Part shown: piece after piece, positions 8,849 through 59,472 of the stretch
Position numbering within the stretch: the first letter of the stretch is position 1
Layout of the letters: every line of letters begins with the position of its first letter
Assembly: GCA_964367375.1 (NCBI GenBank)
Contig: CAYIXG010000001.1
Location: 3,905-67,904 of the forward strand
Length of the DNA stretch: 64,000 bases
Direction: 5' to 3'
From: Candidatus Woesearchaeota archaeon
GTDB taxonomy: Archaea; Nanobdellota; Nanobdellia; SCGC-AAA011-G17; UBA489
Translations under genes and position numbers: made by a program
The notes under the pieces: generated by a model
The model's input: the letters and a program-made list of their open reading frames with translations, nothing else
What the model was told of the DNA's origin: nothing
The model's database searches: none

Positions 8849-8873
8849 AAACCTCGCTGTTTTTTGATGCAGT

Positions 8874-8960
8874 GCCTCGGTAGCTCAGCTCGGTAGAGCA
8901 CGTGGCTGTTATAAACCAGCAGATACCACGCGGTCGAAGGTTCAAATCCTTCCTGAGGCG
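8874..8960 (+). tRNA. tRNA-Asn(GUU) with a 13-nt canonical anticodon-loop intron
   Basis: GCCTCGG-TA-GCTC-AGCTCGGTA-GAGC-A-CGTGG-CTGTTA[t aaaccagcagat]a-CCACG-CGGTC-GAAGG-TTCAAAT-CCTTC-CTGAGGC-G. All stems pair; the mature molecule would be 74 nt. Confidence 0.7.
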
Positions 8961-8963
8961 GAT

Positions 8964-9100
8964 GGGCCGGTAGCTCAGCCTGGCTGGAGCACAGGAATGA
9001 AAATTGAAATTCCGCTCTATCGACTGATAGCATCAGGTCAGGCATCGAGAGTATCAACAGATACCGATAAAGGTCGGAGGTTCAAATCCTCTCCGGCCCA
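8964..9100 (+). tRNA. Intron-containing tRNA gene, isotype unresolved (137 nt; ~62 nt of intervening sequence)
   Basis: Perfect acceptor stem GGGCCGG/CCGGCCC+A, canonical D arm TAGCTCAGCCTGGCTGGAGC, and T arm GGAGG-TTCAAAT-CCTCT. The 84 nt between them cannot be folded by eye into one anticodon arm plus a single 37/38 intron. The gene sits 3 nt after tRNA-Asn. Confidence 0.5.
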
Positions 9101-21475: not shown

Positions 21476-21736
21476 ATGCGGGTCAAGGACATCTTGAAGT
21501 GCGAGCTCATCGGGCTTGCAGTTGAGGTGGTCAGCGCAAAGAACCCGAGCCTGAATGGCATCCGTGGAAAAGTGGTGGACGAGACGAAGTACACGCTCGT
21601 CATTGAAACAGTGAGAGGCGTGAAGCGGCTCATCAAGAGCCAAGTCACGTTAAAAATGAACATGGAAGGAAAAACAGTTGAAGTGGAAGGGAGCGCCCTT
21701 GTGGGGCGTTCTGAAGAAAGGATAAAAAAACGATGA
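21476..21736 (+). CDS. rnp1: RNase P protein component 1 (Rpp29/Pop4 homologue)
   Basis: 86 aa; LIGLAVEVVSAKNPSLNGIRGKVVDETKYTLVIE (Sm-like barrel). It is in the conserved archaeal position between L29/SUI1 and S17. Confidence 0.7.
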   Translation: MRVKDILKCELIGLAVEVVSAKNPSLNGIRGKVVDETKYTLVIETVRGVKRLIKSQVTLKMNMEGKTVEVEGSALVGRSEERIKKR

Positions 21737-22089
21737 AAGCAGCAACACAGAAGAAGGAAGGAAAAAGTTCCAGTATTGGATTAGCAGTCGCTCTCCCTAC
21801 AAAAACGTGCAATGATAGGCATTGCCCTTTTCATGGCGGCTTAAAACTGCGGGGAAGAGTTTTTACAGGAAAAGTATTGAGGAATGTGTTTCATAGAACA
21901 GTAGCAATTGAGTTTGGCCGGCAAATTCTCTTGAAGAAGTATGAGCGTTTCGAGAAGCGAAAGACGAGGATTACTGCGCATGTTCCTGATTGTCTGGATG
22001 TGAAGAAGGGATCAATGATAAAGGTAGTGGAATCTCGTCCTATTTCAAAGACAAAGTCGTTCGTTGCTGTCGAGGTGATAAAGCAATGA
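21733..22089 (+). CDS. rps17: 30S ribosomal protein S17
   Basis: GRVFTGKVLRNVFHRTVAIEF...MIKVVESRPISKTKSFV. Confidence 0.85.
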   Translation: MKAATQKKEGKSSSIGLAVALPTKTCNDRHCPFHGGLKLRGRVFTGKVLRNVFHRTVAIEFGRQILLKKYERFEKRKTRITAHVPDCLDVKKGSMIKVVESRPISKTKSFVAVEVIKQ

Positions 22090-22487
22090 AAGCGTTGAAG
22101 GCGAGCATGTCAAAGCCCTTGGTGCATGGAAGCATTATCGAGGCATGTGATAATTCAGGAGCAAAGAAGTTGAAAGTGGTTTCAGTTAAAGGATCAAAGA
22201 CAGTGAAAGGCCGTTTTCCACAGTGCGGAATTGGTGATTTCATCATGGTGTCTGTGGTGAAAGGAAATCCAACAATGAGGAAGCAGGTTGTTCCTGCAAT
22301 TGTGGTGAGGCAGAAGAAAGAGTATCGGCGTCCTGATGGAACACGGGTGTCTTTTGAGGATAATGCAGCAGTTGTTCTCAAGGATGACAAGGGAAACCCA
22401 AAGGGGACTATTTTTAAGGGTCCTATTGCGAAGGAGGCTGCAGAGCGCTGGCCGGGAATTTCAAAGGTAGCGCACATGGTGGTGTAA
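22086..22487 (+). CDS. rpl14: 50S ribosomal protein L14
   Basis: MKALKASMSKPLVHGSIIEACDNSGAKKLKVVSV... The ATG overlaps the rps17 stop. Confidence 0.9.
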   Translation: MKALKASMSKPLVHGSIIEACDNSGAKKLKVVSVKGSKTVKGRFPQCGIGDFIMVSVVKGNPTMRKQVVPAIVVRQKKEYRRPDGTRVSFEDNAAVVLKDDKGNPKGTIFKGPIAKEAAERWPGISKVAHMVV

Positions 22488-22491
22488 GAGA

Positions 22492-22884
22492 ATGAAACAA
22501 ATATTTGTGAAGTCATGGAAGAAAAGTAAGCAGCCGAGAAAGCAGCGCAAGTATCAAGCGCACGCGCCGTTGCATATCAAGCAGAAGTTTATGGGGGCTC
22601 CGTTGTCAAAGGATTTGCAGAAGAAATACAAGATTAAAACAATAGGTGTGCGGAAAGATGACAAGGTGAAGATCATGCGAGGCCAGTTTAGGAAGCAGAC
22701 AGGGAAGGTCGTTGCAGTGTTGTTGAAGCGTTCACGGATGTTTGTAGAGGGGGCGCAGCGTGTCAAGCGTGATGGGACAAAAGTTTTTTACCCGTTGCAT
22801 CCTTCGAATGTGCAGATTATTGAGATGGTCACAACTGATAAGGAGAGGATGAAGAGGGCTGAACAAGGGAAGGAGAAGAAATAA
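22492..22884 (+). CDS. rpl24: 50S ribosomal protein L24 (KOW)
   Basis: KDDKVKIMRGQFRKQTGKVVAV (KOW motif). Confidence 0.85.
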   Translation: MKQIFVKSWKKSKQPRKQRKYQAHAPLHIKQKFMGAPLSKDLQKKYKIKTIGVRKDDKVKIMRGQFRKQTGKVVAVLLKRSRMFVEGAQRVKRDGTKVFYPLHPSNVQIIEMVTTDKERMKRAEQGKEKK

Positions 22885-22885
22885 G

Positions 22886-23563
22886 ATGGTTCATTTGAAA
22901 AGATTATCCACACCACGATCATGGCCGGTGAAGAGGAAAGAAAACACATACATTTCAAAGCCTTCACCAGGTCCGCATACGCAAAAAACAGCAATTGCAA
23001 TAAATGTTATATTAAGAGATATTCTTGAGTATTCTAAGACAGTACGCGAAACAAAGAAGGTGCTTCATGATAAGCAGGTGATGGTGAATGAAAGGATAGT
23101 GCAAGATCATCGTTTCCCCGTGGGTATTTTGGATCAGATTTCAATAGAGGCAATGAAGGAAACGTTTGTGTTGTTGTACAAAGAGAATGGTAAATTATTT
23201 TTGCAGAAGATGGGGAAGGAGAAGCATGATCGGGCGCTGAAGATTGTGAACAAGACAATTCTATCAAAGAATAGGGTTCAGCTGAACTTGTATGATGGGG
23301 AGAACATCATTGTTGATAAGGACACGTTTAAGGTGGGCGATAGCATTATTCTTGAGAATAAGAAAGTGAAGAAGCATTTAAAGTTTGAGAAAGGTGCGTT
23401 GGTGTATCTTGTTGGTGGAAAGCACATTGGGGCAATAGGGTCTCTTGAAGAGGTGAAGAAGACGCAAGGGTTTGAGAAGGAGAGAATTATTGTTGGGATG
23501 AAGAAGGAGAAGATTGAGACAGCAAAGGAGTATGCGTTTGTCATTGACAAGCCATTTGAATAA
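22886..23563 (+). CDS. rps4e: 30S ribosomal protein S4e
   Basis: MVHLKRLSTPRSWPVKRKENTYISKPSPGPH... Confidence 0.9.
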   Translation: MVHLKRLSTPRSWPVKRKENTYISKPSPGPHTQKTAIAINVILRDILEYSKTVRETKKVLHDKQVMVNERIVQDHRFPVGILDQISIEAMKETFVLLYKENGKLFLQKMGKEKHDRALKIVNKTILSKNRVQLNLYDGENIIVDKDTFKVGDSIILENKKVKKHLKFEKGALVYLVGGKHIGAIGSLEEVKKTQGFEKERIIVGMKKEKIETAKEYAFVIDKPFE

Positions 23564-24099
23564 TGATGAATCAACACGCGCAATTGCAGAAAGAGAATGT
23601 CATGCGAAAGATTCGCGTAGAGAAGATTAACCTCAATCTTGGTGTGGGTGGATCTGGAGATAAGCTGGACAAGGCGTTGAAACTGCTTGAGAAGATAACT
23701 GGCAGGAAGCCGGTTGCTGTTGCAACAAAAAAGAGAATTCCCACATGGGGTCTGCGCCCGGGGTTGCAGATTGGTGCTCGTGTCACGATGCGCGGGAAAA
23801 AAGCAGAAAGTCTTTTGGGAAACTTGTTGAAGGCTGTTGACAGCAAAATGAAGGAATCAAGCTTTGATGATGCAGGAAATGTTTCATTTGGAATTGCAGA
23901 GTATATTAATATTCCTGGGGTGAAGTATGATTCTGAAATAGGGATCATTGGTTTTGAAGTTGCAGTGACGTTGCAGCGCCCGGGATTTCGAGTGAAGAGG
24001 CGGAGAATGATGCAAAGAAAAGTAGGAAGGAAGCATAGGATCACTCATGCTGAGGCAATTGCATTCATGAAAGAAAGGTTTGGGGTGCATGTCGAATGA
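23563..24099 (+). CDS. rpl5: 50S ribosomal protein L5
   Basis: [25 protein letters not shown]...[12 protein letters not shown]. Confidence 0.9.
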
Positions 24100-24326
24100 C
24101 TACAAGTAGCTATACAAAGGTGTTCAAGCAGCTGAAGAGCAAGCCTGCAAAGTTGCTGAAGTTCAAGAAGCATAACGCTCCGAAGAAAAGGACGTGCGGA
24201 AAGGCGTTGCACAAGTGCAGGATGTGTGGGAGGGCTGGGGGCCACATCCAAAAATATGGCTTGAAGCTCTGTCGTCAGTGTTTTAGGGAAATTGCAAAGG
24301 ACATAGGATTCAAGAAGTATGCGTAG
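24096..24326 (+). CDS. rps14: 30S ribosomal protein S14 (Zn type)
   Basis: [32 protein letters not shown]. Confidence 0.9.
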
Positions 24327-24337
24327 GAGAACAAACC

Positions 24338-24727
24338 ATGTTAAATGATCCATTAGCAAACGCGTTGAACATGATGATGAACGCGCAAAAGGCAGGAAAA
24401 TCGTTTTGTACAGTGAAGCCAATCTCAAAGATGATGATGAAAGTGCTTGATATCATGCATGATCATAAGTATATTGGAAAGGTTGAGGTTGTTGATGAGA
24501 GGCAAGGGAAAATGATTCGGGTTGAGTTATTGGGGAAGATTAACAATTGTGCGGTTGTGAAGCCTCGGTATTCGGTGAAGAAGGGAACGTACGAAAAATT
24601 TGAGGAAAGATATCTCCCTGCAAAGAATTTTGGGTTTTTGATTGTTTCAACGTCAAAGGAAATAATGACGCATCTTGAAGCAAAGGAAAAAGGATTGGGA
24701 GGAATGTTGCTGGCGTATGTCTACTAA
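24338..24727 (+). CDS. rps8: 30S ribosomal protein S8
   Basis: MLNDPLANALNMMMNAQKAGK...GGMLLAYVY. Confidence 0.9.
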   Translation: MLNDPLANALNMMMNAQKAGKSFCTVKPISKMMMKVLDIMHDHKYIGKVEVVDERQGKMIRVELLGKINNCAVVKPRYSVKKGTYEKFEERYLPAKNFGFLIVSTSKEIMTHLEAKEKGLGGMLLAYVY

Positions 24728-25280
24728 TAAAAAGAAGGAAAAAAGGATTGTGGAAAGCATAGATGTTCCTGAAGGATGTCAAGTGACGATACAGGAGAAT
24801 GTCATGAAAGTAAAGGGAAAATCTGGAGAGGTGCAGCGAATGCTGGCTGATCCTGAGGTGGAAATAGTTCAAAGAGAAAATGTGATTACGCTTTCATCTG
24901 AAAATGTTTCAAGAAATGGAAAGAGGATGCTGATGACTTTCCGAGCGCATATCAAGAATTTGATTCAGGGTGTGAATGAAAAGTTTGTGTACACGTTAAA
25001 GATATGTTCTGGCCATTTTCCCATGACTGTAAAAGTGGAGAAGAGTCAGGTGATGGTGTCTAACTTTTTAGGGGAGAAGATTCCAAGAAAGGCGAAGATT
25101 CTTCCGGGTGTTGATGTAAAGGTTGACAAAGAGATGATTACTGTTTCGTCATCAGATATTGAGGCTGCAGGGCAAACCGCTGCAAACATAGAGACAATGA
25201 CAAGAATTAGGAACAGAGATCGGAGGGTGTTTCAAGACGGATGTTATATTGTTGAGACGCCGAGGAAAAAGTTTATATGA
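24717..25280 (+). CDS. rpl6: 50S ribosomal protein L6
   Basis: Two L6 alpha/beta repeats (VTIQENVMKVKGKSGEV... and HFPMTVKVEKSQVMV...). Start at the internal ATG overlapping the rps8 end. Confidence 0.85.
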   Translation: MSTNKKKEKRIVESIDVPEGCQVTIQENVMKVKGKSGEVQRMLADPEVEIVQRENVITLSSENVSRNGKRMLMTFRAHIKNLIQGVNEKFVYTLKICSGHFPMTVKVEKSQVMVSNFLGEKIPRKAKILPGVDVKVDKEMITVSSSDIEAAGQTAANIETMTRIRNRDRRVFQDGCYIVETPRKKFI

Positions 25281-25849
25281 GCAGCTCTCCATCAGTATTG
25301 CAGTTGAGGAATGCATTAAAGAAAAAAAAGCCTGTCTTTCGAAAGACAGACGCGCACAAGTGCAAAAAGTTGGAGGCAAATTGGCGTCAGCCTCGAGGGA
25401 GGCATAGCAAGTATAGGTTGAAGTTGAAGTCTCGGCCGCGTCAGCCTTCGATAGGTTTTTCTTCGCCGAAAGAAGTCCGTTTTTTTACTGCTGATGGTTA
25501 TCCTCTGCTTCTCGTATATAACAGTGCAGACCTTGGGGGAGTAAAGACTCCTATTACTATTGCAAGTGGAGTGGGAACAAGAAAGCGAATAGAGATTATA
25601 AAGAAGGCAAAAGAATTGCACCTTTCCATTACAAATGTGAAGGATGGGGATGTGTTTGTGAAGAACGTTGAAGACATGTTGAAGCAGAAGAAGGAAAGGA
25701 AGAAGAAGGTTGCTGAGAAGAGGCAGCAATTGAAAGAGACTGCAGCGAAGAAAGAGGCAGAAAAGGAAGAGAAAGCAGAGCAGGAAACGGTTGAGGATCG
25801 TGAGAAGAGAGAAAAGGAGTTGAAGAGGAAGGTGCTGGAGCAAGGATGA
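25277..25849 (+). CDS. rpl32e: 50S ribosomal protein L32e (K/E-rich C-terminal tail)
   Basis: WRQPRGRHSKYRLKLKSRPRQPSIGF, then a ~70-aa KE-rich extension. Confidence 0.85.
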   Translation: MSSSPSVLQLRNALKKKKPVFRKTDAHKCKKLEANWRQPRGRHSKYRLKLKSRPRQPSIGFSSPKEVRFFTADGYPLLLVYNSADLGGVKTPITIASGVGTRKRIEIIKKAKELHLSITNVKDGDVFVKNVEDMLKQKKERKKKVAEKRQQLKETAAKKEAEKEEKAEQETVEDREKREKELKRKVLEQG

Positions 25850-26340
25850 AACTCACAACACAGCGAAGGATTGCCGCGCAGTTGTTGAAGTGCGGTGAAA
25901 AGAGAGTATGGTTTGATCCTGAAAGTTTGGCTGAAATTAAAGAGGCGATTACAAAGAATGATATAAGAAATATGATTAATCATAAAGCCATTCAAAAGAG
26001 GCACAAGACATCCATTTCAAGGTGTAGGGCGCGTCAGCACCTTGCGCAACGAAAGAAGGGAAGAAGGCAAGGCCAAGGATCAAGGAAAGGGACTGCGTCT
26101 GCACGGATGGAGTCAAAGAGAAAGTGGATTAATGCAATTCGGGCGCAGCGGCGATTGTTAAAATCATTGCGTGATCATGAAAAGATAGCTTTAAGAACGT
26201 ACCATAGTCTGTATGCAAAAGCGAAGGGTGGTTTTTTTAGAAGCAGAAAGCACATACAATTGTATTTGGAGGAACATGACTTAATATACCATGCCAAGAC
26301 TCAAGAAAAGGCGAAGTCTCCCGCTCCGAAGAAAGCGTGA
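25846..26340 (+). CDS. rpl19e: 50S ribosomal protein L19e
   Basis: MKLTTQRRIAAQLLKCGEKRVWFDPESLAEIKEAITKNDIRNMI. Confidence 0.85.
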   Translation: MKLTTQRRIAAQLLKCGEKRVWFDPESLAEIKEAITKNDIRNMINHKAIQKRHKTSISRCRARQHLAQRKKGRRQGQGSRKGTASARMESKRKWINAIRAQRRLLKSLRDHEKIALRTYHSLYAKAKGGFFRSRKHIQLYLEEHDLIYHAKTQEKAKSPAPKKA

Positions 26341-26797
26341 GGGTCGCACGGATTACAGGAAGCGGTTGCAGCTCCTTGTATCGAGGAAGCCCAGATTAGT
26401 AGTGAGAAAATCGTTGAAAAATGTGGGCATGCAGCTTGTTGAATATGGTGAGAAAGGTGATAAAATAATGGTGCATGCGTCAACGAAAGAGCTTGAGCAA
26501 AAATTTGGGTGGGTGGGTGCGAGAAGAAACACGCCTGCAGCGTATCTGACAGGATATTTAGTCGGGTTAAAAGCGAAGCAAAAGAAGATACTCGCAGCTG
26601 TTGCAGATTTAGGGTTGCAGCGTGCGGTGAATGGGGCAATCATTTTTGCTGCAGTGAAGGGTGTGAATGATGCTGGCGTTGCAGTTCCTCTTGGGAAGGA
26701 GATGTGTCCCAGTGATGATCGAATCAGCGGAAAGCATTTGAAGAATGTGAAGTTTGCTGAAGTGAAGCAAAAGATTGAGGCGGCTTTTAAAAAATGA
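26291..26797 (+). CDS. rpl18: 50S ribosomal protein L18 (L5e)
   Basis: RRKREGRTDYRKRLQLLVSRKPRLVVRKSLKNV. The start overlaps the rpl19e end. Confidence 0.85.
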   Translation: MPRLKKRRSLPLRRKREGRTDYRKRLQLLVSRKPRLVVRKSLKNVGMQLVEYGEKGDKIMVHASTKELEQKFGWVGARRNTPAAYLTGYLVGLKAKQKKILAAVADLGLQRAVNGAIIFAAVKGVNDAGVAVPLGKEMCPSDDRISGKHLKNVKFAEVKQKIEAAFKK

Positions 26798-27651
26798 AAG
26801 AAGAGAAAACTGAAGAAATCAAAGCTCCTGAGAATCAGCAGGAAGCGGTTGTCGTTGAGGAAGGCAGTATTCCTCAAGAGAAGCAAGAGCTTGTCAAAGT
26901 GCAAGATGAAGTGGTGCCTGAAGCTGTTGATGTTCCTGTGGGAATTGCGCGGGAGCAGGGTTTTGATAAGGAGAAGTGGCATCCGAAGACGAAGCTGGGA
27001 ATGCGTGTAAAAGCAGGAGAAATTACAACCATTGATGAAATTTTAGATAAGGGTGTGCGTATTTTTGAGGCAGAAATTGTGGATTGTTTGGTGCAGGATG
27101 TGGATATTGATTTGCTTGCAGTTGGTCAGTCAAAGGGGAAGTTTGGTGGGGGGAAGCGTTCGATTTGGCGGCAAACGCAAAAGAAAACGAGAGAGGGAAA
27201 TAAACCCAGTTTTACTGCATTGGTTGTTGCGGGAAACAGGGATGGTTATATTGGTCTTGGTGCGGGAAAGGCAAAGGAAACGGTTCCTGCCAGGGAAAAG
27301 GCAACGCGAAATGCAAAGTTAAGTGTAATGAAGATTCTGAGAGGGTGTGGCTCATGGAGGTGTGGGTGTGGAACGCCGCATTCAATTCCATTTACTGTTA
27401 AAGGAAAGTGTGGGTCAGTGATTGTGAAGCTTATTCCTGCGCCGAAAGGAACGAAGTTATGTACAGAAAAGGAGTGTGCAAAGATTTTGGAGCTTGCAGG
27501 GATTAAGGATGTGTATATGCGATCCTTAGGTCATACAGCAACCAAGATGAATTTGGTGAAGGCATGTTTTATTGCGTTGAAGAAGTTGACAGAAATGAAG
27601 ATGACTCCAGAATATTATAAAATTGCTGGAGTGAAGGAAGGGAAGAAATGA
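26794..27651 (+). CDS. rps5: 30S ribosomal protein S5 (acidic N-terminal extension)
   Basis: GNRDGYIGLGAGKAKETVPAREKATRNAKLSVM...GIKDVYMRSLGHT. The first ~60 aa are an E/Q/V-rich extension. Confidence 0.9.
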   Translation: MKEEKTEEIKAPENQQEAVVVEEGSIPQEKQELVKVQDEVVPEAVDVPVGIAREQGFDKEKWHPKTKLGMRVKAGEITTIDEILDKGVRIFEAEIVDCLVQDVDIDLLAVGQSKGKFGGGKRSIWRQTQKKTREGNKPSFTALVVAGNRDGYIGLGAGKAKETVPAREKATRNAKLSVMKILRGCGSWRCGCGTPHSIPFTVKGKCGSVIVKLIPAPKGTKLCTEKECAKILELAGIKDVYMRSLGHTATKMNLVKACFIALKKLTEMKMTPEYYKIAGVKEGKK

Positions 27652-28142
27652 CAGAGAAAGAGCCAGTGAAGTTGGTACGGGTTGCGGTTATTCGGATCAG
27701 AGGAGATACTGGAATAAAGGCTCCAATTAAAAAAACATTGGAGTTATTGCGTTTATATAGAAAGCATCATTGTGTGATCATTGCAAATAATCCGACAGGT
27801 GTGGGAATGTTGACAAAGGTGAAGGATGTAGTAACATGGGGAGAGATTGATGAGGAAACGTGTCAATTGCTGCTTGCGAAGCGTGGTCTTCTTCCGGGAA
27901 AGGGGCATTTGTCTCCAGAGTATGTGCAGGAAAAAATGAAGATGTCTCTTGATCAGTTTGTGAAAGAGTTTATGGCATTAAAGCGCGAATTGCAGGATGT
28001 TCCTGGATTAAAGTCTTTTTTTAAGTTGAAGCCTCCGGAAAGAGGTTTTGAACGCAAAGGGATAAAGGTGCCTTTCTCATTGGGCGGTTCTCTCGGGTAT
28101 CGGAAAGATGCGATTAATGACCTCTTGAGGAGGATGATGTAG
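27648..28142 (+). CDS. rpl30: 50S ribosomal protein L30
   Basis: VRVAVIRIRGDTGIKAPIKKTLELLRLYRKHHCVII. Confidence 0.85.
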   Translation: MTEKEPVKLVRVAVIRIRGDTGIKAPIKKTLELLRLYRKHHCVIIANNPTGVGMLTKVKDVVTWGEIDEETCQLLLAKRGLLPGKGHLSPEYVQEKMKMSLDQFVKEFMALKRELQDVPGLKSFFKLKPPERGFERKGIKVPFSLGGSLGYRKDAINDLLRRMM

Positions 28143-28144
28143 GA

Positions 28145-28543
28145 ATGACAGTGAACAAGAGAAAAAAGAATTCGAGAAGGCACGGCAAGACGACGCATGG
28201 TTATGGTTCAAGGAAGAAGCATCGCGGTGCGGGAAATCGTGGAGGAAGGGGGATGGCAGGAACAGGAAAGCGAGCAGATCAAAAAAAGATAAGCATCATT
28301 AAGGAGTATAATGGGGAATATTTTGGAAAGCATGGTTTTGTGTGTCAGACAACAAAAGCAGTGAAGACAGTGAACATTGAGGACTTGCCTGCAAGTGGGG
28401 AAGTGAATTTGCGGGTGTTGGGTATTGGAAAATTGTTGGGAAAGGGAATGCCAAAGGGAAAGCTGACAGTAATTGTGGATGCAGTGTCAAAGAAGGCGCA
28501 GGAGAAGATTGAAAAAGCAGGGGGAAAAATAGTTTCTGAGTGA
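28145..28543 (+). CDS. rpl15: 50S ribosomal protein L15
   Basis: KRKKNSRRHGKTTHGYGSRKKHRGAGNRGGRGMAGTGKRADQKK. Confidence 0.85.
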   Translation: MTVNKRKKNSRRHGKTTHGYGSRKKHRGAGNRGGRGMAGTGKRADQKKISIIKEYNGEYFGKHGFVCQTTKAVKTVNIEDLPASGEVNLRVLGIGKLLGKGMPKGKLTVIVDAVSKKAQEKIEKAGGKIVSE

Positions 28544-29952
28544 CCATGGGCGTTTTTGAGTCTATCTTATCATTTCTTCCTGAGGTGAGGAAGCCAACAG
28601 AAAAGCGGTTGTCTTTTAAGGTGAAGTTAAAGTGGACGCTGCTGATTTTGGTTGCGTTCTTTGTGTTGTCTGTCATTCCGTTGTTTGGATTGGGAGAAAA
28701 CGCGTTGTCGCAGTTTGAGTCTTTGTCTATTATTCTGGGTGCAAGTTTTGGTTCAATTATGTCATTAGGTATTGGCCCGATTGTCACTGCATCTATTGTG
28801 TTGCAGTTGTTGAGCGGTTCTGGGATTTTGAAGCTGGACACAACAACAAAGGAAGGGAGGGCGCGCTTTCAAGGCTTACAGAAAGTGTTGACAATCTTTT
28901 TCATCTTGTTTGAGGCGATTATTTATGTGTTTATGGGTGGTCTTGCCCCTGCGCAGACGTTGTTGGGAACGTCTTCGTATCTGCTTATACAATTAATCTT
29001 GGTGTTTCAGTTGGTGCTTGGCGGGTTTATTGTGATGTATATGGATGAGGTGGTGAACAAGTACGGCTTTGGCTCGGGAATATCATTGTTCATTGCTGCA
29101 GGAGTGTCGAGCGAGTTGTTTATTCGTGCATTTTCTCCGTTGACGCGTGCAGGAACGTGGGCGTTTGGAGGTGCAGAGGCTCCGATTGGTCAGGTGTGGG
29201 TGTTGTTCACATCGTTGATTGGAAGAAACCCGGTGGGTGCTGGGCTTGCGTTAGCCTCAATCCTTGCAACAGTGTTAATTTTTGTTTTGGCAGTGTATGG
29301 TCAGGCAATGAAGATTGAAATTCCTCTCTCATTTGGAAGGATTCGTGGTCATGGGATTCGGTGGCCGTTGAAGTTTATGTACACTTCGAACATTCCTGTT
29401 ATTTTGACTGCAGCATTGCTTGCAAACATTCAGTTGTGGGCGAGGTTGTTGGAGAAGTGGGGGCATCCTCTTTTTGGAACGTATATTGGAAATCTTCCTG
29501 CATCAGGCTTGGTAACCTGGGTGTTTCCGCCGAATTTGATACAGGGAATCATCACAAGTTCTTTAAGAATGATTGATGTGGCGCACGCCTCTGTGTACCT
29601 ATTGTTTATGACTGGGGGTGCGGTGTTATTCTCTATTTTCTGGGTGCAAACTTCTGGAATGGACGCTGCATCACAAGCAAAGCAGATGATGGCGTCTGGC
29701 TTGCAGATTCCCGGGTTTAGACGCGATCCGCGGGTGTTGGAGCAAATTTTAGGAAGATACATCATGCCCTTGACAGTGTTGGGTGCGATTTCAGTGGGAT
29801 TGCTTGCAGGTTTGGCTGATGTGTTGGGTGCATTGTCTCAGGGAACAGGAATCTTGCTGACAGTCATGATTATTTATAAGCTGTATGAGGATATTGCGCA
29901 GCAGCACATGATGGATATGCATCCTGCGTTGCAGAAGATGATGGGTGAATAA
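28540..29952 (+). CDS. secY: Preprotein translocase subunit SecY
   Basis: 10-TM SecY/Sec61-alpha; GIGPIVTASIVLQLL, the plug region and GTGILLTVMIIYKLYE. The likely true start is the ATG at 28546. Confidence 0.9.
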   Translation: MTMGVFESILSFLPEVRKPTEKRLSFKVKLKWTLLILVAFFVLSVIPLFGLGENALSQFESLSIILGASFGSIMSLGIGPIVTASIVLQLLSGSGILKLDTTTKEGRARFQGLQKVLTIFFILFEAIIYVFMGGLAPAQTLLGTSSYLLIQLILVFQLVLGGFIVMYMDEVVNKYGFGSGISLFIAAGVSSELFIRAFSPLTRAGTWAFGGAEAPIGQVWVLFTSLIGRNPVGAGLALASILATVLIFVLAVYGQAMKIEIPLSFGRIRGHGIRWPLKFMYTSNIPVILTAALLANIQLWARLLEKWGHPLFGTYIGNLPASGLVTWVFPPNLIQGIITSSLRMIDVAHASVYLLFMTGGAVLFSIFWVQTSGMDAASQAKQMMASGLQIPGFRRDPRVLEQILGRYIMPLTVLGAISVGLLAGLADVLGALSQGTGILLTVMIIYKLYEDIAQQHMMDMHPALQKMMGE

Positions 29953-29954
29953 AG

Positions 29955-30425
29955 ATGGTGCTTGACAAGTTTTTTGATGTGTTGTTTTATCCGTTTCTGC
30001 ACTTTTTGTCTCCGCGGTGGAGTCTGATTGGGATTTCTCTTATTATTACAGTTCTCATTACGCTTGCATATAAGTTCTTGACCAATCAGCAGAGGATGAA
30101 GGAATTGAAGGCTGAGGTGAAGGACTTGCAAGCGAAGATGAAGGAGAGTAAGGAGGATAAGGATAAGCTGATGCAGCTGAATCAGCAGGCGATGGGAAAG
30201 AATTTGGAAGTGATGAAGCACAGCTTGCGCCCCACATTAATCACCTTTATTCCGATTATTATCATCTTTTCGTGGCTCAGAAACACGTATTTGCCTGCAG
30301 GCGACCTTTTTTCATGGAATGCGGATATTATCCTTTTTGGGAGCGGGATAGGGTGGTTATGGACATATATTCTGTGTTCATTCATTTTTAGCTTGATCAT
30401 AAGAAAAGTTTTAAAAATCCAGTAG
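29955..30425 (+). CDS. DUF106 family membrane protein (Oxa1/EMC3-like insertase homologue)
   Basis: 3-TM protein with a coiled-coil loop (KELKAEVKDLQAKMKESKEDKDKLMQLNQQAMGKN). This is the conserved archaeal position downstream of secY. Confidence 0.6.
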   Translation: MVLDKFFDVLFYPFLHFLSPRWSLIGISLIITVLITLAYKFLTNQQRMKELKAEVKDLQAKMKESKEDKDKLMQLNQQAMGKNLEVMKHSLRPTLITFIPIIIIFSWLRNTYLPAGDLFSWNADIILFGSGIGWLWTYILCSFIFSLIIRKVLKIQ

Positions 30426-44328: not shown

Positions 44329-46632
44329 TTATTCTTCTCGAAACTTTTTGTATCTGTTTTTCAGAGTAGTAAATTCAAGGACAGGAAGATTATCAGTGTT
44401 GACAAGGGTGATGTTCTGCACATACTCATGCAGTTCTTCGTTTGTTCGGGTGTAGAGTGCAGTCATAAACGTTTTGGTGGTGTTGTATTCTTCCCACTGA
44501 AGATCAGCAAGTTCTTTTTTAACGCCCTCTGGAATAGTGTTGAGATTCTTCTGGAGTGTTTCCATAACAGAGAGGGGTGTTGCTGTTGCGACAACAACCA
44601 CATCTCCCCTGCTGTCTTTGTCTGCGCCGAGGTTGAATTCATATGCATAAGGAAACACGCTGAGGACAGTGTTGATGAAGAGCTGGTAGTCTTTTTCAGA
44701 CATTTCATATCTGGGCACCCATTGAGATAATATCCCTTTTTCATTCAAGTGGTTTCGTGCAGCCTGGTAAAATTCTTTGGTGAAGAGATTTGATACACCT
44801 GAAACCCAGATGTTTGGGGGTTCTGAAACAATGACATCATATTTCTCTTGTGTTGTTTCGATGTAGTTTCTGCCGTCTGCGAGGATAAGATTGACTTTCT
44901 CATTCTTGAGCACATCTTCGTTGTAGGATGCAATCACGGTGCCGACAGCTTCTGCGACTGCAGGATCTATTTCAATGACATCAATGGTTGGAATGGAATG
45001 TTTAACTGCAGATGCTGTGCTGAATCCTCCGCCGAGGCCGATGATTGCCATCTGTGCGGGACTGGGGTGAAGGAGCAAGGGGATATGAGTGAGCATGGCT
45101 TGTGTTAATTGGTCGCCTAAAGATGCGTCTGCTTTTCCGTTATTCTTCAGAATAATGTTTGTTCCTTGCCAGACAACGCTCACTTGTCCATAGGGGCTGT
45201 TTTTCAGAAAGACAATGCTGTCTCTTCCTTCCTTTGCATTGATGTAGCTTTCAATGGAATCATAGCGAGTGCCATGGTAATACACGCCTCCAAAGATGTA
45301 ATCTGAGTTGTGGAGGGAGGTGAAGAATATTGCTCCAATGATGAGGATGAAAAAGAGTGCTTCTGCAACGTTGATGCGTATGGGTTTTTCCGCATAAATG
45401 AGGAAGAATGCTGCTGCAATGAAGAGGTAAATGCTTGCCGCAAATGTAGATGAGTAATTAAGTCCAAAGATTGGGATGATGGCAAATCCTGCAAGGAATG
45501 CGCCAAAAATGGCTCCGCAGGAATTGATTGCATACAGTTTGCCGACGCCTTCTCCGACTTTTTCGTGGTGGAGAACAATGGAGCTGAGAAGAGGTAAAGT
45601 GATTCCCATGAGAAACGTGGGAATCAGAAGGATTGCAATCAAGGTGAGTGTTTGCAGCGAAAGGAAGGTGGCATAGGTGGGAGAGGCGAAGAAAATGGTC
45701 AAGAACCATCGGTCAAGGTAGGGAAAGACTTTGATGAGGGTGATGCCAAAGATGCCTATGAAAAATTCAACCATGGCAAATGCAGTGATTTTATGGGTTA
45801 TCTTGTGCTGCCATTTAGCATAACAAAAGCTGCCAGCACCAAGTCCGAGTAAGAAGCTGATAAGGACAATGCCAAAGGAGTACACACCACTTCCATAAAT
45901 GAGAGAAACAAATCGTGTCCAGATGACTTGGAACATGAGTGCTGCGCATCCCGAAAGAAAAAAGAGGAAGAGCACGCTTCGAGAAATGGGGGAAGAGTGG
46001 GTGGTTGCTGATGGTTCTTGTGGTGATCGAATGGGAAAGGTGAGGATGCCTGCGATGAAGTTGGCGAGAGACGCAATGATTGATGTGGTCAGGAATCCGA
46101 ATGAGGGGATGAAGAAGAAGATGGCTATAAGGACTCCTAATGATCCGCCAATGGTGTCTATTGCATAGGGGATGCCGACCGAAGATCCAATAGCGCGGTG
46201 CTGTTCATGGTAGAGTTTGATGATCATGGGAAATACTGCGCCAATGAGGAACGTGGGAATAATGAGGACAAGTGCAGCAAGAAAGAATTGCACGAGCCAG
46301 AAGAGGAAGAGTGAGGAGAAAGCGTTGTGAAGAGCAGTATAGAGGTGTCTGATGAGGGGGAAAAGAATAAGAGTTAAGAAGCAGCTGATGCCAATGCCAA
46401 AAGAGAAATAGCTGACGAGTCGTGATTTGTTTGCTGATCGTTCGATAAGCTTCCCTCCATAATAGCCGCCGAGGGCGAGCCCTGCCATGAAGACAGTGAG
46501 CACAGTGCTGACTGCGATGGCGCTTGTGCCAAAGATGTGGGATAATTCTCGTGACCACACAATTTCGTAGACAAGTGCGCTGAGTGAGGTGAAAAAGATG
46601 GTAAAAAGATAAATAAAAGTCTTGGAATGCAT
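44329..46632 (-). CDS. Fused polytopic membrane domain + spermidine-synthase-like (aminopropyltransferase-fold) protein
   Basis: 767 aa; ~14 N-terminal TM helices in two MFS-like halves. The C-terminal domain has the Rossmann motif IIGLGGGFSTASAV and ...VIVSEPPNIWVSGVSNLFTKEFY, typical of spermidine synthase. Confidence 0.6.
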   Translation of the reverse strand: MHSKTFIYLFTIFFTSLSALVYEIVWSRELSHIFGTSAIAVSTVLTVFMAGLALGGYYGGKLIERSANKSRLVSYFSFGIGISCFLTLILFPLIRHLYTALHNAFSSLFLFWLVQFFLAALVLIIPTFLIGAVFPMIIKLYHEQHRAIGSSVGIPYAIDTIGGSLGVLIAIFFFIPSFGFLTTSIIASLANFIAGILTFPIRSPQEPSATTHSSPISRSVLFLFFLSGCAALMFQVIWTRFVSLIYGSGVYSFGIVLISFLLGLGAGSFCYAKWQHKITHKITAFAMVEFFIGIFGITLIKVFPYLDRWFLTIFFASPTYATFLSLQTLTLIAILLIPTFLMGITLPLLSSIVLHHEKVGEGVGKLYAINSCGAIFGAFLAGFAIIPIFGLNYSSTFAASIYLFIAAAFFLIYAEKPIRINVAEALFFILIIGAIFFTSLHNSDYIFGGVYYHGTRYDSIESYINAKEGRDSIVFLKNSPYGQVSVVWQGTNIILKNNGKADASLGDQLTQAMLTHIPLLLHPSPAQMAIIGLGGGFSTASAVKHSIPTIDVIEIDPAVAEAVGTVIASYNEDVLKNEKVNLILADGRNYIETTQEKYDVIVSEPPNIWVSGVSNLFTKEFYQAARNHLNEKGILSQWVPRYEMSEKDYQLFINTVLSVFPYAYEFNLGADKDSRGDVVVVATATPLSVMETLQKNLNTIPEGVKKELADLQWEEYNTTKTFMTALYTRTNEELHEYVQNITLVNTDNLPVLEFTTLKNRYKKFREE

Positions 46633-46713: not shown

Positions 46714-47484
46714 ATGTATATAAAAAGAGATGGGAAAAGAGTGAGGATGCCTGAATTATCATATCTGGTGCGGGACATGCTCAACACTGAACCTCCAGGC
46801 GGGTTAATTCTGGTGACAGGGACAATGGCTGGTGGCAAGTCGAGAGAGATTGTTGCGGCCTTGCACATCGCATACCAAAGGCTAAACGGAAAGGGTGTGC
46901 AGTTGTTCAGGCCGGGAAAGGATTCTCGGATGCAGGTGTCGCGGGATAGGGTTGAGATTCGGTATCCTGTTGAAGCAGTAATAAATGCTGCAGAGCTTGA
47001 GAGAAAAGTGCAGGGAGATACAAAGGTTGTGGGTATTGATGAGGCACATTTTCTGGATGCGGGTATTGTTGAATTGTGCCGATCATTTGTGACCTATGGG
47101 AAAGTGGTGGTTGTGGGTACGTTGTTGTTTGATTTTCGTGGCGAAGACATGCCCTTTATGCAGGGAGAAGATGGAAGAACGGTGATGGATTTGTTGCGAA
47201 TAGCAGATCAGATTGTTCCGCAAGGTGTGGTGAACTGTAATTACGTTTCTCCAGAAGGGAGGACGTGTAATAGGCTGGCCTCGCAAGTGCAAAGGTATAA
47301 GGTAGGAAATCCTGCGAATGTGTTGCTAGCGTCTAATGCTTCTGATAGAGTGCACATTGTTGATGATAAGCAGAGCGAGTGGCTGTATGCGCCAGTGTGT
47401 ACGCATCATCACTTCGTTCCGGGAAGTCGTGACAAACATAGGAATCGCACTATTCCTGAAAGCGCGTCATTTCGTTTGAGTTAG
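46714..47484 (+). CDS. tdk: Thymidine kinase (TK1 type)
   Basis: P-loop VTGTMAGGKSRE, VVGIDEAHFLD, VVVGTLLFDFRGE, and a C-terminal Zn ribbon NCNYVSPEGRTCNR...VCTHHH. The true start may be the ATG at 46747. Confidence 0.7.
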   Translation: MYIKRDGKRVRMPELSYLVRDMLNTEPPGGLILVTGTMAGGKSREIVAALHIAYQRLNGKGVQLFRPGKDSRMQVSRDRVEIRYPVEAVINAAELERKVQGDTKVVGIDEAHFLDAGIVELCRSFVTYGKVVVVGTLLFDFRGEDMPFMQGEDGRTVMDLLRIADQIVPQGVVNCNYVSPEGRTCNRLASQVQRYKVGNPANVLLASNASDRVHIVDDKQSEWLYAPVCTHHHFVPGSRDKHRNRTIPESASFRLS

Positions 47485-47872
47485 CTCTGCAAAAGAAATG
47501 CCTTTCTTTGCAGTGATGGCAACTGAATAGCCATACAGTTGTGCAGGTGTTTTTTCAAGCTGGGAAGGTTTGACAAATCTCCACGGAACGTGATTGAATC
47601 GGATGCCAATCCAGGGTTCAGCGCCGAATCCTTTTGCAAAGGTGATCAATTCTTGTATTTGTTCGTTTGTGATGTATTGTTTTCTGTCTCCCTTTGCTGA
47701 TTTGCATTCGATTGCTAAGATGCGTCCTTTTTTTCCTGCAATGAGATCTGGGTTTGGTAAGGGTGTTGATCCGCTGCCTGCTGCTCTTACAACAACCCAT
47801 CCGTGGTTGAAGAGCATGTGAAAAAGTTCCCGCTCAACGCGACTTCCTTTTGCTTTGTTGATAGTTAATCAC
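47467..47872 (-). CDS. hjc: Holliday-junction resolvase Hjc, with an apparent +1 frameshift near the 5' end
   Basis: From the ATG at 47817 the ORF encodes MLFNHGWVVVRAAGSGS..PDLIAGKKGRILAIECKS (Hjc nuclease core). The conserved N-terminal motif KGSRVEREL is encoded in frame immediately upstream with no start codon. A GTG at 47872 in the -1 frame would give MINYQQSK-GSRVERELFHM... if one A were removed from the A4 run at 47848-47851. Confidence 0.6.
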
Positions 47873-47976
47873 CTCACATAATAATTAGGTTTGTTCTTGT
47901 TTATTAAGGTATTGTGTTTTTTTAGTTAGTTTCTTGTTCGCTGCGCTCACGCTTTTGCTATCAGTAAAATGTTCGA

Positions 47977-48630
47977 TTATTGTTTCTCACCAATTAATAG
48001 AATAAACTTCCCTTTTGCTTTGAAACCATATTCTGGAGTATGAAGTAGATTATCTTCATACGTTGATTCTTGCATAGTTATTGAATAATTTTTAAGAAAT
48101 CTTTTTAATAATTTTTTAGCAGCATTCATTGTATATAATGTACTATATTTTGATTCATCTTGTTTGTTAAAAGGTTCTCTTTGAATATCAGTAGCAAAAT
48201 CAAGTATAATCATTCCTTTCTTTTTCAAAATCCTATTTATCTCTAAAAAAATAAATTCTAATTGTTTTTCTTTGAATAAATGTAAAGTTCCTGTACAAAA
48301 TACTCCATCAAATGACTTATCATCAAAAGGAAATGTTGTAGTTATATCAAATTGTTTCAATTCTACTTTCTGTTTTTGTTTTTCAGATAATTTTGATTCA
48401 ATTTTTTTTAATTCATTTGTATTTAAATCAGATACAGTTAGTTTATTTACTTTCTCAAGCAATTCAGGAAGATATCTACCATCTCCTGCTGCGAGATCAA
48501 GCCAAGTTCCTTTCATTTCAGTTTGTTTTAGTAATCGAAGAGTTAATACTTCTCCTTCACCCCAGATTGATTTGTTTAACATAACTATAATTAAAAAATA
48601 GAGATTAATAATCTTTCGGAGAATTAACAC
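47977..48630 (-). CDS. Class I SAM-dependent methyltransferase, in a ~27%-GC island
   Basis: Motif I WLDLAAGDGRY, motif post-I LTVSDLN, and motif II/III region DGVFCTGTLHLF...KKGMIILDF. The base composition is strikingly more AT-rich than the flanking genes. Confidence 0.6.
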   Translation of the reverse strand: MLILRKIINLYFLIIVMLNKSIWGEGEVLTLRLLKQTEMKGTWLDLAAGDGRYLPELLEKVNKLTVSDLNTNELKKIESKLSEKQKQKVELKQFDITTTFPFDDKSFDGVFCTGTLHLFKEKQLEFIFLEINRILKKKGMIILDFATDIQREPFNKQDESKYSTLYTMNAAKKLLKRFLKNYSITMQESTYEDNLLHTPEYGFKAKGKFILLIGEKQ

Positions 48631-48699
48631 TCTAGCTCAAGCGTGAACCTTTATGTTCACCATAACAAGAAAAAATAAATTACTCTTCTAACTATCTCT

Positions 48700-48746
48700 T
48701 AAGTAAAAAATAAAAAGAAAAAAGGAGACTTTTTTTTACAAGTCTC
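48700..48746 (-). terminator. Hairpin + T-tract terminator of the histone-fold gene
   Basis: Inverted repeat GAGACT / AGTCTC (48725-48730 / 48741-48746) spans the stop codon. On the minus strand it is followed by CTTTTTTTCTTTTTATTTTTT. Confidence 0.35.
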
Positions 48747-48906
48747 GTGCTTTGACGGTTGCTCTGCCGTTGTCTTTTGCGCGACGAGAGGCGTCTTTGA
48801 TAAGGTCTTCGACTTTCTTGCTGAGTTCTTCTGCGAAGTCTCCAGCAACGTTCATGTTTTTGACGAATTCCTTAATTTTGCTTCGAACAACTAAAAGTTC
48901 TGCCAT
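48736..48906 (-). CDS. Small histone-fold protein
   Basis: MAELLVVRSKIKEFVKNMNVAGDFAEELSKKVEDLIKDASRRAKDNGRATVKARDL has helix-strand-helix spacing consistent with a histone-fold / archaeal histone-like monomer. The six-frame ORF extends 12 codons upstream to 48942. Confidence 0.45.
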   Translation of the reverse strand: MAELLVVRSKIKEFVKNMNVAGDFAEELSKKVEDLIKDASRRAKDNGRATVKARDL

Positions 48907-59393: not shown

Positions 59394-59397
59394 AAAG

Positions 59398-59472
59398 TGC
59401 CTTGGGGCGGATTTGAACCGCCGACCCTCGCCTTATGAAAGCGATGCTCCAGCCAGGCTGAGCTACCAAGGC
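59398..59472 (-). tRNA. tRNA-Met(CAU), elongator type
   Basis: Revcomp GCCTTGG-TA-GCTC-AGCCTGGCTG-GAGC-A-TCGCT-TTCATAA-GGCGA-GGGTC-GGCGG-TTCAAAT-CCGCC-CCAAGGC-A; G1:C72. Confidence 0.75.

Follow-up and report, generated by a model that had tools for sequence, protein, structure and literature searches.

Near-cognate start codons in prokaryotes include the AUU of infC and pcnB in Escherichia coli, and ATT, ATC and ATA are listed as starts in translation table 11. The start-codon set AUG, GUG, UUG, AUA, AUU and AUC has been used in comparative studies (PMC5397173), near-cognate codons made up about 30% of the putative alternative starts in ribosome profiling of Haloferax volcanii, where they were set aside (PMC7261190), and the initiation factor aIF1 destabilises archaeal initiation complexes on non-AUG codons (PMC6237735). 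An experimentally verified natural AUC start in archaea was not found in the literature, and the searches likewise gave no publication dealing with the start codon of hjc or with near-cognate initiation in DPANN archaea. The gene under study here is hjc, encoding the Holliday-junction resolvase Hjc, on the minus strand of a 64,000-nucleotide (nt) stretch of contig CAYIXG010000001.1 of Candidatus Woesearchaeota archaeon (assembly GCA_964367375.1), the whole of which is referred to as the window. Conserved coding sequence of this gene extends past every canonical start to a one-base neighbour of ATG that aligns with the Met of its orthologues, and the full-length protein of 131 amino acids (aa) is probably made by Shine-Dalgarno-directed initiation at this codon, an AUC at 47862-47860.

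Hjc belongs to the PD-(D/E)XK nucleases and is characterised as a dimer that cleaves four-way DNA junctions. The motif-I Glu is strictly conserved in Hjc, whose defining residues are E9, D33, E46 and K48 in the numbering of Pyrococcus furiosus (PMC8805305). All four were found in invariant columns of the window protein as E10 (47835-47833), D39 (47748-47746), E52 (47709-47707) and K54 (47703-47701), and the set is complete only if translation begins upstream of ATG 47817. Compared with the archaeal Hjc proteins of family PF01870 and the structures 1gef (P. furiosus), 1hh1 (Sulfolobus solfataricus) and 2wcz (Archaeoglobus fulgidus), the window protein gives the same full-length match, carries the same motif I G-x3-E (E10), motif II D39 and motif III E52-x-K54 and falls in the same size class, and no difference was seen other than the unusual initiation codon. 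The extended protein matched Pfam Hjc with 105.1 bits against a cut-off of 21.1 (E=1.9e-30) over profile positions 2-92 of 93, and the match starting from ATG 47817 reached 93.2 bits over positions 10-92 only. The chains 2wcz, 1gef and 1hh1 were matched at E = 5e-23 to 4e-12 with alignments beginning at residue 2-7 of the extended translation, in which E10 aligned with Glu9 of 1gef. Judged from its sequence, hjc is an intact archaeal Holliday-junction resolvase gene of a Woesearchaeota/Nanoarchaeota-type DPANN archaeon.

The proposed coding sequence runs on the minus strand from 47862 to 47467, with the ATC (47860..47862) decoded as Met, 131 codons and then TGA. The first canonical ATG (47815..47817) is the internal Met16 in E-L-F-H-M and is the choice of gene callers; the open reading frame (ORF) that it opens reads MLFNHGWVVVRAAGSGS... 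and gives a truncated protein of 116 aa (MLFNHGW...) ending at the TGA 47469-47467. Upstream of this ATG, the hjc frame continues for 15 codons that encode the conserved KG-x3-ERE motif and, read from the in-frame TGA at 47871-47869, two codons 5' of the ATC, it gives L T I N K A K G S R V E R E L F H; canonical starts (ATG, GTG, TTG) are absent between this TGA and ATG 47817. An earlier note, made from the letters of the window alone, had placed the motif KAKGSRVEREL in the same frame between the TGA and the ATG without a canonical start and had pointed out that the ORF from ATG 47817 lacks the N-terminal motif with its catalytic Glu; both statements hold. Among the approximately 70 putative genes of the window, hjc is the only one with a conserved coding extension that has no canonical start. 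The gene converges with a thymidine kinase gene (46714-47484, plus strand, PF00265), and the 3' ends of the two overlap by 18 nt (47467-47484).

The conservation of the extension reaches exactly to the ATC. In an alignment of 51 sequences K5, G6, E10, R11, E12 (47829-47827) and L13 of the extension were invariant and K3 and H15 were at least 90% conserved, and H15 followed by M is common in homologues that have normal upstream starts. The 120 best homologues were all Hjc proteins of the Woesearchaeota/Nanoarchaeota type at identities of 58% or less; over all the collections searched, the closest sequences lay at 50-59%, with 58-59% for the best. The N-termini of the 120 read M-S-K-A-K-G or nearly so, and the distance from Met to Gly was 5 residues in 56 of them, 6 in 41 and 4 in 17. 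The stretch I-N-K-A-K-G-S-R-V-E-R-E-L matched M-S-K-A-K-G-S-R-x-E-R-E-L residue for residue (120/120 top homologues), which puts the ATC at the Met position. Start models were scored with a hidden Markov model (HMM) built from 50 homologues, with the window sequence left out, and the ATG 47817 start (160.6 bits) cost about 33 bits relative to the ATC start (193.2 bits). The models with a start at GTG 47872 and an early frame shift (192.0 bits) or with one A deleted (189.5 bits) differed only slightly from the ATC model, and the ranking among these three is a weak test on its own.

The earlier note had sought the cause of the arrangement in a run of four A, as the site of a +1 frameshift or indel. 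The run exists (47851-47848, minus strand), and it forms part of ordinary Lys-rich coding sequence (GCA AAA GGA, A-K-G) in which the existing N-K-A-K-G frame already matches K3, K5 and G6, so that a shift in it as the cause is not supported. The N-terminus obtained by deleting one A, described there as perfect, would be MINYQQSKG, which loses K3 and has its Gly at index 8, a position shared by only 2 of the 120 homologues, and it scores below the ATC model. The GTG at 47872-47870 does open the -1 frame as stated, with a 12-codon ORF (47834..47872, minus strand) encoding VINYQQSKRKSR*. As a start codon it fared less well, since it is itself part of a perfect Shine-Dalgarno sequence with no separate ribosome-binding site in front of it, and its frame relation to hjc varies among species; we judge the ORF to be untranslated. 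What stood of the note is thus a catalytic N-terminus encoded upstream of the first canonical start, and what did not stand is the frameshift as its cause; a non-canonical start codon had not been considered.

This Shine-Dalgarno sequence, GAGGTGAT (47868..47875, minus strand), contains both the GTG and the in-frame TGA (47871-47869), and it places a ribosome-binding site 5 nt 5' of the ATC, a working distance. It matches at 8 of 8 positions the complement of the conserved 3' end of 16S rRNA (AGGAGGTGATCC). The same 8-mer precedes two other genes of the window, those for uL14 (ATG 22086, spacer of 6 nt) and for a Na+/H+ exchanger-TrkA_N protein (ATG 55661, spacer of 3 nt), and no Shine-Dalgarno sequence was found before ATG 47817. 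The spacing is comparable to that of the natural start of aEF1A in Pyrococcus abyssi, GGAGGUGAU-UUAA-AUG (PMC6237735). Further upstream, a TATA-box-like sequence TTAATAAA (47900..47907, minus strand) is centred approximately 41 nt 5' of the ATC. As the archaeal Box A lies about 26 nt before the transcription start (PMC5397173), the hjc transcript would be predicted to begin just 5' of the Shine-Dalgarno sequence with a leader of about 15 nt. No significant RNA structure was detected over the 79-nt start region (z = 0.58), and the window holds no Rfam families other than tRNAs.

To the same signals belong some observations on the rest of the window. A ribosomal-protein-like cluster at 21700-30400 (plus strand), judged as such from uL14 (22086-22487) and a Ribosomal_L27A-family gene of L15/L18e type (28145-28543), has Shine-Dalgarno sequences of GGAGG/GAGGTG type before its internal genes; many first genes in other parts of the window lack such a sequence and are preceded by AT- or pyrimidine-rich DNA. 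From this distribution, the genome would seem to use both leaderless and Shine-Dalgarno-led initiation.

A profile scan of GTDB species representatives yielded 80 hjc loci of Woesearchaeota and Nanoarchaeota (numbered with the prefix L), of which 79 were analysed. The codon aligned with the Met was ATG in 61 loci, TTG in five, GTG in two, ATT in seven, ACG in two (L016 and L018), ATC in one (L028) and ATA in one (L078). A near-cognate codon (ATT, ATC, ACG or ATA) was thus present in 11 of the 79 related loci, nearly all of them behind a Shine-Dalgarno sequence of GGTGA type, and it was always a one-base neighbour of ATG. Where the aligned codon would specify Leu or Thr it was always TTG or ACG, and no other synonymous codon was seen; apart from CTG, these two are the only near-cognate members of the Leu and Thr codon families. 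Five of the loci (L008, L028, L045, L074 and L078) have, as in the window, no in-frame canonical start before the catalytic Glu, and in L008, L028, L045 and L078 the TGA of GGTGA is likewise in frame with the near-cognate codon 5 nt on. The comparison with orthologous genes that the earlier note had proposed as a check lent no support to a frameshift, as the GTG of GGTGA was found in frame, in +1, in -1 or, in AGGAG-type loci, not at all. This variable relation fits a spacer of 3-7 nt and not a start codon or frameshift site, and the GTG inside GGTGA was rejected as the true start on these grounds.

The two classes of start differ in their upstream regions. Over the 80 loci including the window, a Shine-Dalgarno match of at least 5 nt was present in 16 of 19 non-ATG starts versus 7 of 61 ATG starts (Fisher p = 6e-9). 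The ATG loci mostly have AT-rich upstream regions with a TATA-like box centred at about -26 and no Shine-Dalgarno sequence, and they look leaderless; in relatives of Shine-Dalgarno type, boxes resembling TTTATAAA have their centres at about -38 to -45 relative to the start codon. The hjc orthologues thereby fall into the same two classes as the known archaeal dichotomy of leaderless AUG and Shine-Dalgarno-led genes (PMC5397173). They depart from usual Shine-Dalgarno-led genes in that, read row by row, about 16 of 19 loci with a spaced Shine-Dalgarno sequence are non-ATG, very unlike the ATG majority that is usual; in the window, the 3 other Shine-Dalgarno-led genes that were seen all start with ATG. 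Among the close relatives of L028, ATG alleles have a degenerate Shine-Dalgarno sequence AAGGTAATC (L020 and L089-L094) or none together with a -26 TATA box (L088), unlike the ATC and ATT alleles L028 and L045 with a perfect GGTGAT, and these coordinated differences suggest that the strengths of Shine-Dalgarno sequence and start codon may compensate each other. In a rough neighbour-joining tree of this 130-aa protein, of which the branching is unreliable, non-ATG starts do not group together and many have ATG starts as sisters, a pattern which suggests that the start codon of hjc may have switched repeatedly.

The near-cognate state appears to be confined to hjc. We scanned about 330 kb (the window and the related loci) for ORFs of 80 codons or more whose earliest possible start is a near-cognate codon behind a Shine-Dalgarno match of 6 nt or more, and the matches were hjc only, plus one ATA on the minus strand of L016 that is probably an antisense artefact. 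Apart from that artefact, no near-cognate starts outside hjc were found among the approximately 70 window genes and the 80 flanks, and genome-wide use of near-cognate starts was rejected as an explanation. A tRNA-Met gene (59397-59472) was also considered as a possible unusual initiator; with its G1-C72 end it was taken to be of elongator type, and it is uninformative here.

The relatives also bear on whether such starts persist. L028 (ATC) and L045 (ATT) are separated by a synonymous divergence (dS) of 0.57 with a ratio of nonsynonymous to synonymous divergence (dN/dS) of 0.22, L061 and L072 (both ATT) by a dS of 1.08 with a dN/dS of 0.13, and L008 and L009 (both ATT) share 79% amino-acid identity at saturated synonymous sites. 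These near-cognate-start genes are under purifying selection, and a near-cognate start is therefore compatible with long-term function. The upstream N-terminal codons themselves, ATT TCT AAA GTA AAA GGG in L008 and ATT TCA AAA AAA AAG GGG in L009, differ synonymously (TCT/TCA and AAA/AAG), which indicates that they are translated. The ATC of the L028 type was identical in 10 of 10 contigs assembled independently from different ENA and JGI samples.

Taken together with the upstream signals, these results are consistent with the following course of initiation. A short-leadered hjc mRNA would begin at the predicted site immediately before the Shine-Dalgarno sequence, and GAGGUGAU in this mRNA would pair with the 3' end of 16S rRNA. 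This pairing would put the P site 5 nt downstream, on the AUC, where the initiator Met-tRNA could pair at two of three positions, and the product would be the 131-aa Hjc MNKAKGSRVEREL... with the motif-I Glu included. Output of Hjc is expected to be low, because start-codon proofreading, exerted by aIF1 in archaea, disfavours a near-cognate codon, and a low level would fit a structure-specific nuclease. The gene would thus resemble infC and pcnB of E. coli, which likewise have a neighbour of AUG behind a good Shine-Dalgarno sequence with output expected to be low and sensitive to proofreading. It differs from infC in being archaeal, with fidelity governed by aIF1 and not IF3 (PMC6237735), in encoding a DNA-repair nuclease and not an initiation factor, and in having no evident autoregulatory logic.

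Some points weigh against initiation at the AUC. The event itself is inferred from the comparisons above, and the organism's own 16S rRNA 3' end lies outside the window. Six of the 11 related near-cognate loci offer a second possible start, a GTG or TTG in the hjc frame; it lies at -8 within a Shine-Dalgarno-like motif in L009, L016, L018 and L052 and at -2 in L061 and L072. These loci give weaker support. One of the 10 otherwise identical L028-type contigs (L101, ENA ERZ28563660 scaffold_101732) has a TAA at hjc codon 2 (locus position about 159-161), reading ATC TAA AAA and not ATC TCA AAA; the stop may be a null allele, or an artefact of assembly or variant origin, and it is the only observation that fits awkwardly with translation from the ATC. 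No close relatives of the window hjc were found in a single-protein scan of GTDB genome contigs, JGI metagenome contigs reached only 31-48% identity, and at a best identity of 58-59% a recent mutation from ATG to ATC would look the same, a one-base neighbour of ATG being also the product of a single recent mutation. Such a loss, in which a Shine-Dalgarno-led ATG mutated to ATC and left the gene silent, very weakly expressed or decaying, is the foremost of the rival explanations, though an unlikely one. The product of ATG 47817 would then be a catalytically dead fragment without helix 1. DPANN genomes are reduced and drift-prone, no close relative is at hand to show that the ATC is old, and it stands one substitution from ATG; relatives with both a Shine-Dalgarno sequence and ATG exist (L010 and L038), and the stop in L101 would suit decay. 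A decaying gene agrees poorly, however, with an intact ORF that keeps every invariant residue, with the same state in at least five other species at a dN/dS of 0.13-0.22 and saturated synonymous sites, or with a perfect 8-mer Shine-Dalgarno sequence at a working distance, when in ATG relatives this sequence is mostly missing or degenerate.

Much less probable is an error of sequencing or assembly, either a C for G at 47860 in a true ATG or an indel of one base somewhere from GTG 47872 to the KG motif. The sequence probably comes from a metagenome assembly, deletion of a single A does restore an ORF from the GTG, and the closest relative L009 reads TTG ATA AAC ATT TCA (M-I-N-I-S) where the window, one base longer, reads GTG ATT AAC T ATC AAC. 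Yet the Logan contig SRR32696705_1095018, a separate assembly that may come from the same sample as the window, is 100% identical over 46981-48737 (1757 nt), including the A4 run and the ATC, and a run of four A is not error-prone in short-read data. An indel is unnecessary where the frame already matches homologues to the Met position, and the same arrangement occurs in L008, L028, L045 and L078 from unrelated projects as well as in all 10 L028-type contigs. It is harder still to credit a programmed +1 frameshift, in which translation would start at GUG 47872 and tRNA-Lys would slip on A-AAA-GG (47852-47846) into the hjc frame. The window shares some features with prfB (RF2) and with Ty1 and its CUU-AGG-C: a small ORF precedes the gene in a different frame, AGG follows a slippery-looking run rich in A, and an element resembling a Shine-Dalgarno sequence is close by. 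AAA-AGG would allow tRNA-Lys to re-pair in the +1 frame, and the zero-frame ORF ends four codons later at TGA 47836-47834. Unlike in those systems, the element here lies upstream of the putative start and not of a shift site, a stimulatory structure is absent, the relatives share neither shift site nor direction, and the frame is already correct up to the Met-aligned codon. The relatives would need a shift of +1 (L008, L028, L045 and L078), of -1 (L072 and L074) or of zero, and in L061, without the GTG, it would be impossible. The GUG, inside the Shine-Dalgarno sequence, would lie 3-5 nt from the predicted 5' end with no such sequence of its own, AGG is presumably not a rare codon in a genome of this kind, and the product would lack the conserved K at G-3. 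A conserved slippery site and direction with a functional zero-frame start, by which programmed frameshifting is recognised, were thus not found. Equally improbable is that the 116-aa protein from ATG 47817 is the real functional product, such as a non-catalytic junction-binding variant. It has the only canonical start and is what gene callers report, and similar truncated calls have been deposited for relatives (MBS3144888.1), but it lacks helix 1 and the strictly conserved motif-I Glu (PMC8805305), its 15 upstream codons are conserved at the protein level with synonymous differences between relatives, and no Shine-Dalgarno or promoter-like sequence precedes 47817, the latter by a sigma-70 scan that is not meaningful for an archaeon. 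Initiation at the AUC therefore remains the explanation that we favour.

Public annotation already holds different solutions for these genes. The L074 gene (L074/L095) was called from its ATT (HLD02812.1, 128 aa, NCBI record DATDVX010000090.1), and the L016-type gene begins, in its record, at the GTG that forms part of the Shine-Dalgarno sequence (MEK6903510.1, 133 aa). The L028-type gene (L028/L096-L105) was deposited truncated at an internal Met (MBS3144888.1, 121 aa, at least 24 contigs), the L008-type gene is likewise truncated to 104 aa, and the window hjc stands at 116 aa in Logan. Non-canonical initiation of hjc is already accepted by one pipeline and is handled inconsistently across public annotation.

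Other features of the window include a 767-aa protein (44329-46632, minus strand) that joins a polytopic membrane N-terminal half with a weak MFS_1 match to a spermine/spermidine synthase domain (PF01564). Two adjacent tRNA-like genes, intron-containing by appearance, lie at 8873-9100 (plus strand), where ARAGORN reports a 4-base 'anticodon' (ataa) at 8873-8961 and Rfam a 137-nt tRNA match at 8964-9100. A small protein encoded at 48739-48906 (minus strand), MAELLVVRSKIKEF..., has a sub-threshold DUF1931 match (20.5 bits against a cut-off of 21.8) and could, by eye, be histone-fold-like.

For genome analysis, gene callers limited to ATG, GTG and TTG yield a 116-aa Hjc without the catalytic Glu where the correct model would be 47862-47467 with an ATC start, and from such truncated calls one could wrongly conclude that DPANN genomes have lost a functional resolvase. 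By its sequence the window hjc belongs with other DPANN hjc genes in which a strong Shine-Dalgarno sequence stands before a putatively weak start. Experimental data on the tolerance of archaea to weak starts are very sparse, and the occurrence of a strong Shine-Dalgarno sequence with a near-cognate start in some species and a leaderless ATG in their sister species offers a natural experiment on this question. More tentatively, hjc may repeatedly have switched from a leaderless AUG mRNA to a short-leadered one with a near-perfect Shine-Dalgarno sequence and a deliberately weak start (AUU, AUC, ACG, AUA or UUG) in a sizeable fraction of Woesearchaeota and Nanoarchaeota, as a selected, gene-specific way to hold a potentially toxic nuclease at a very low level or to make its production depend on how stringent start-codon proofreading is (aIF1 availability, stress); we consider this possible but doubtful. 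If a weak start of hjc has indeed been selected, these genes would represent the first natural, evolutionarily conserved set of near-cognate starts in archaea and would provide a ready-made test bed for archaeal start-codon fidelity.

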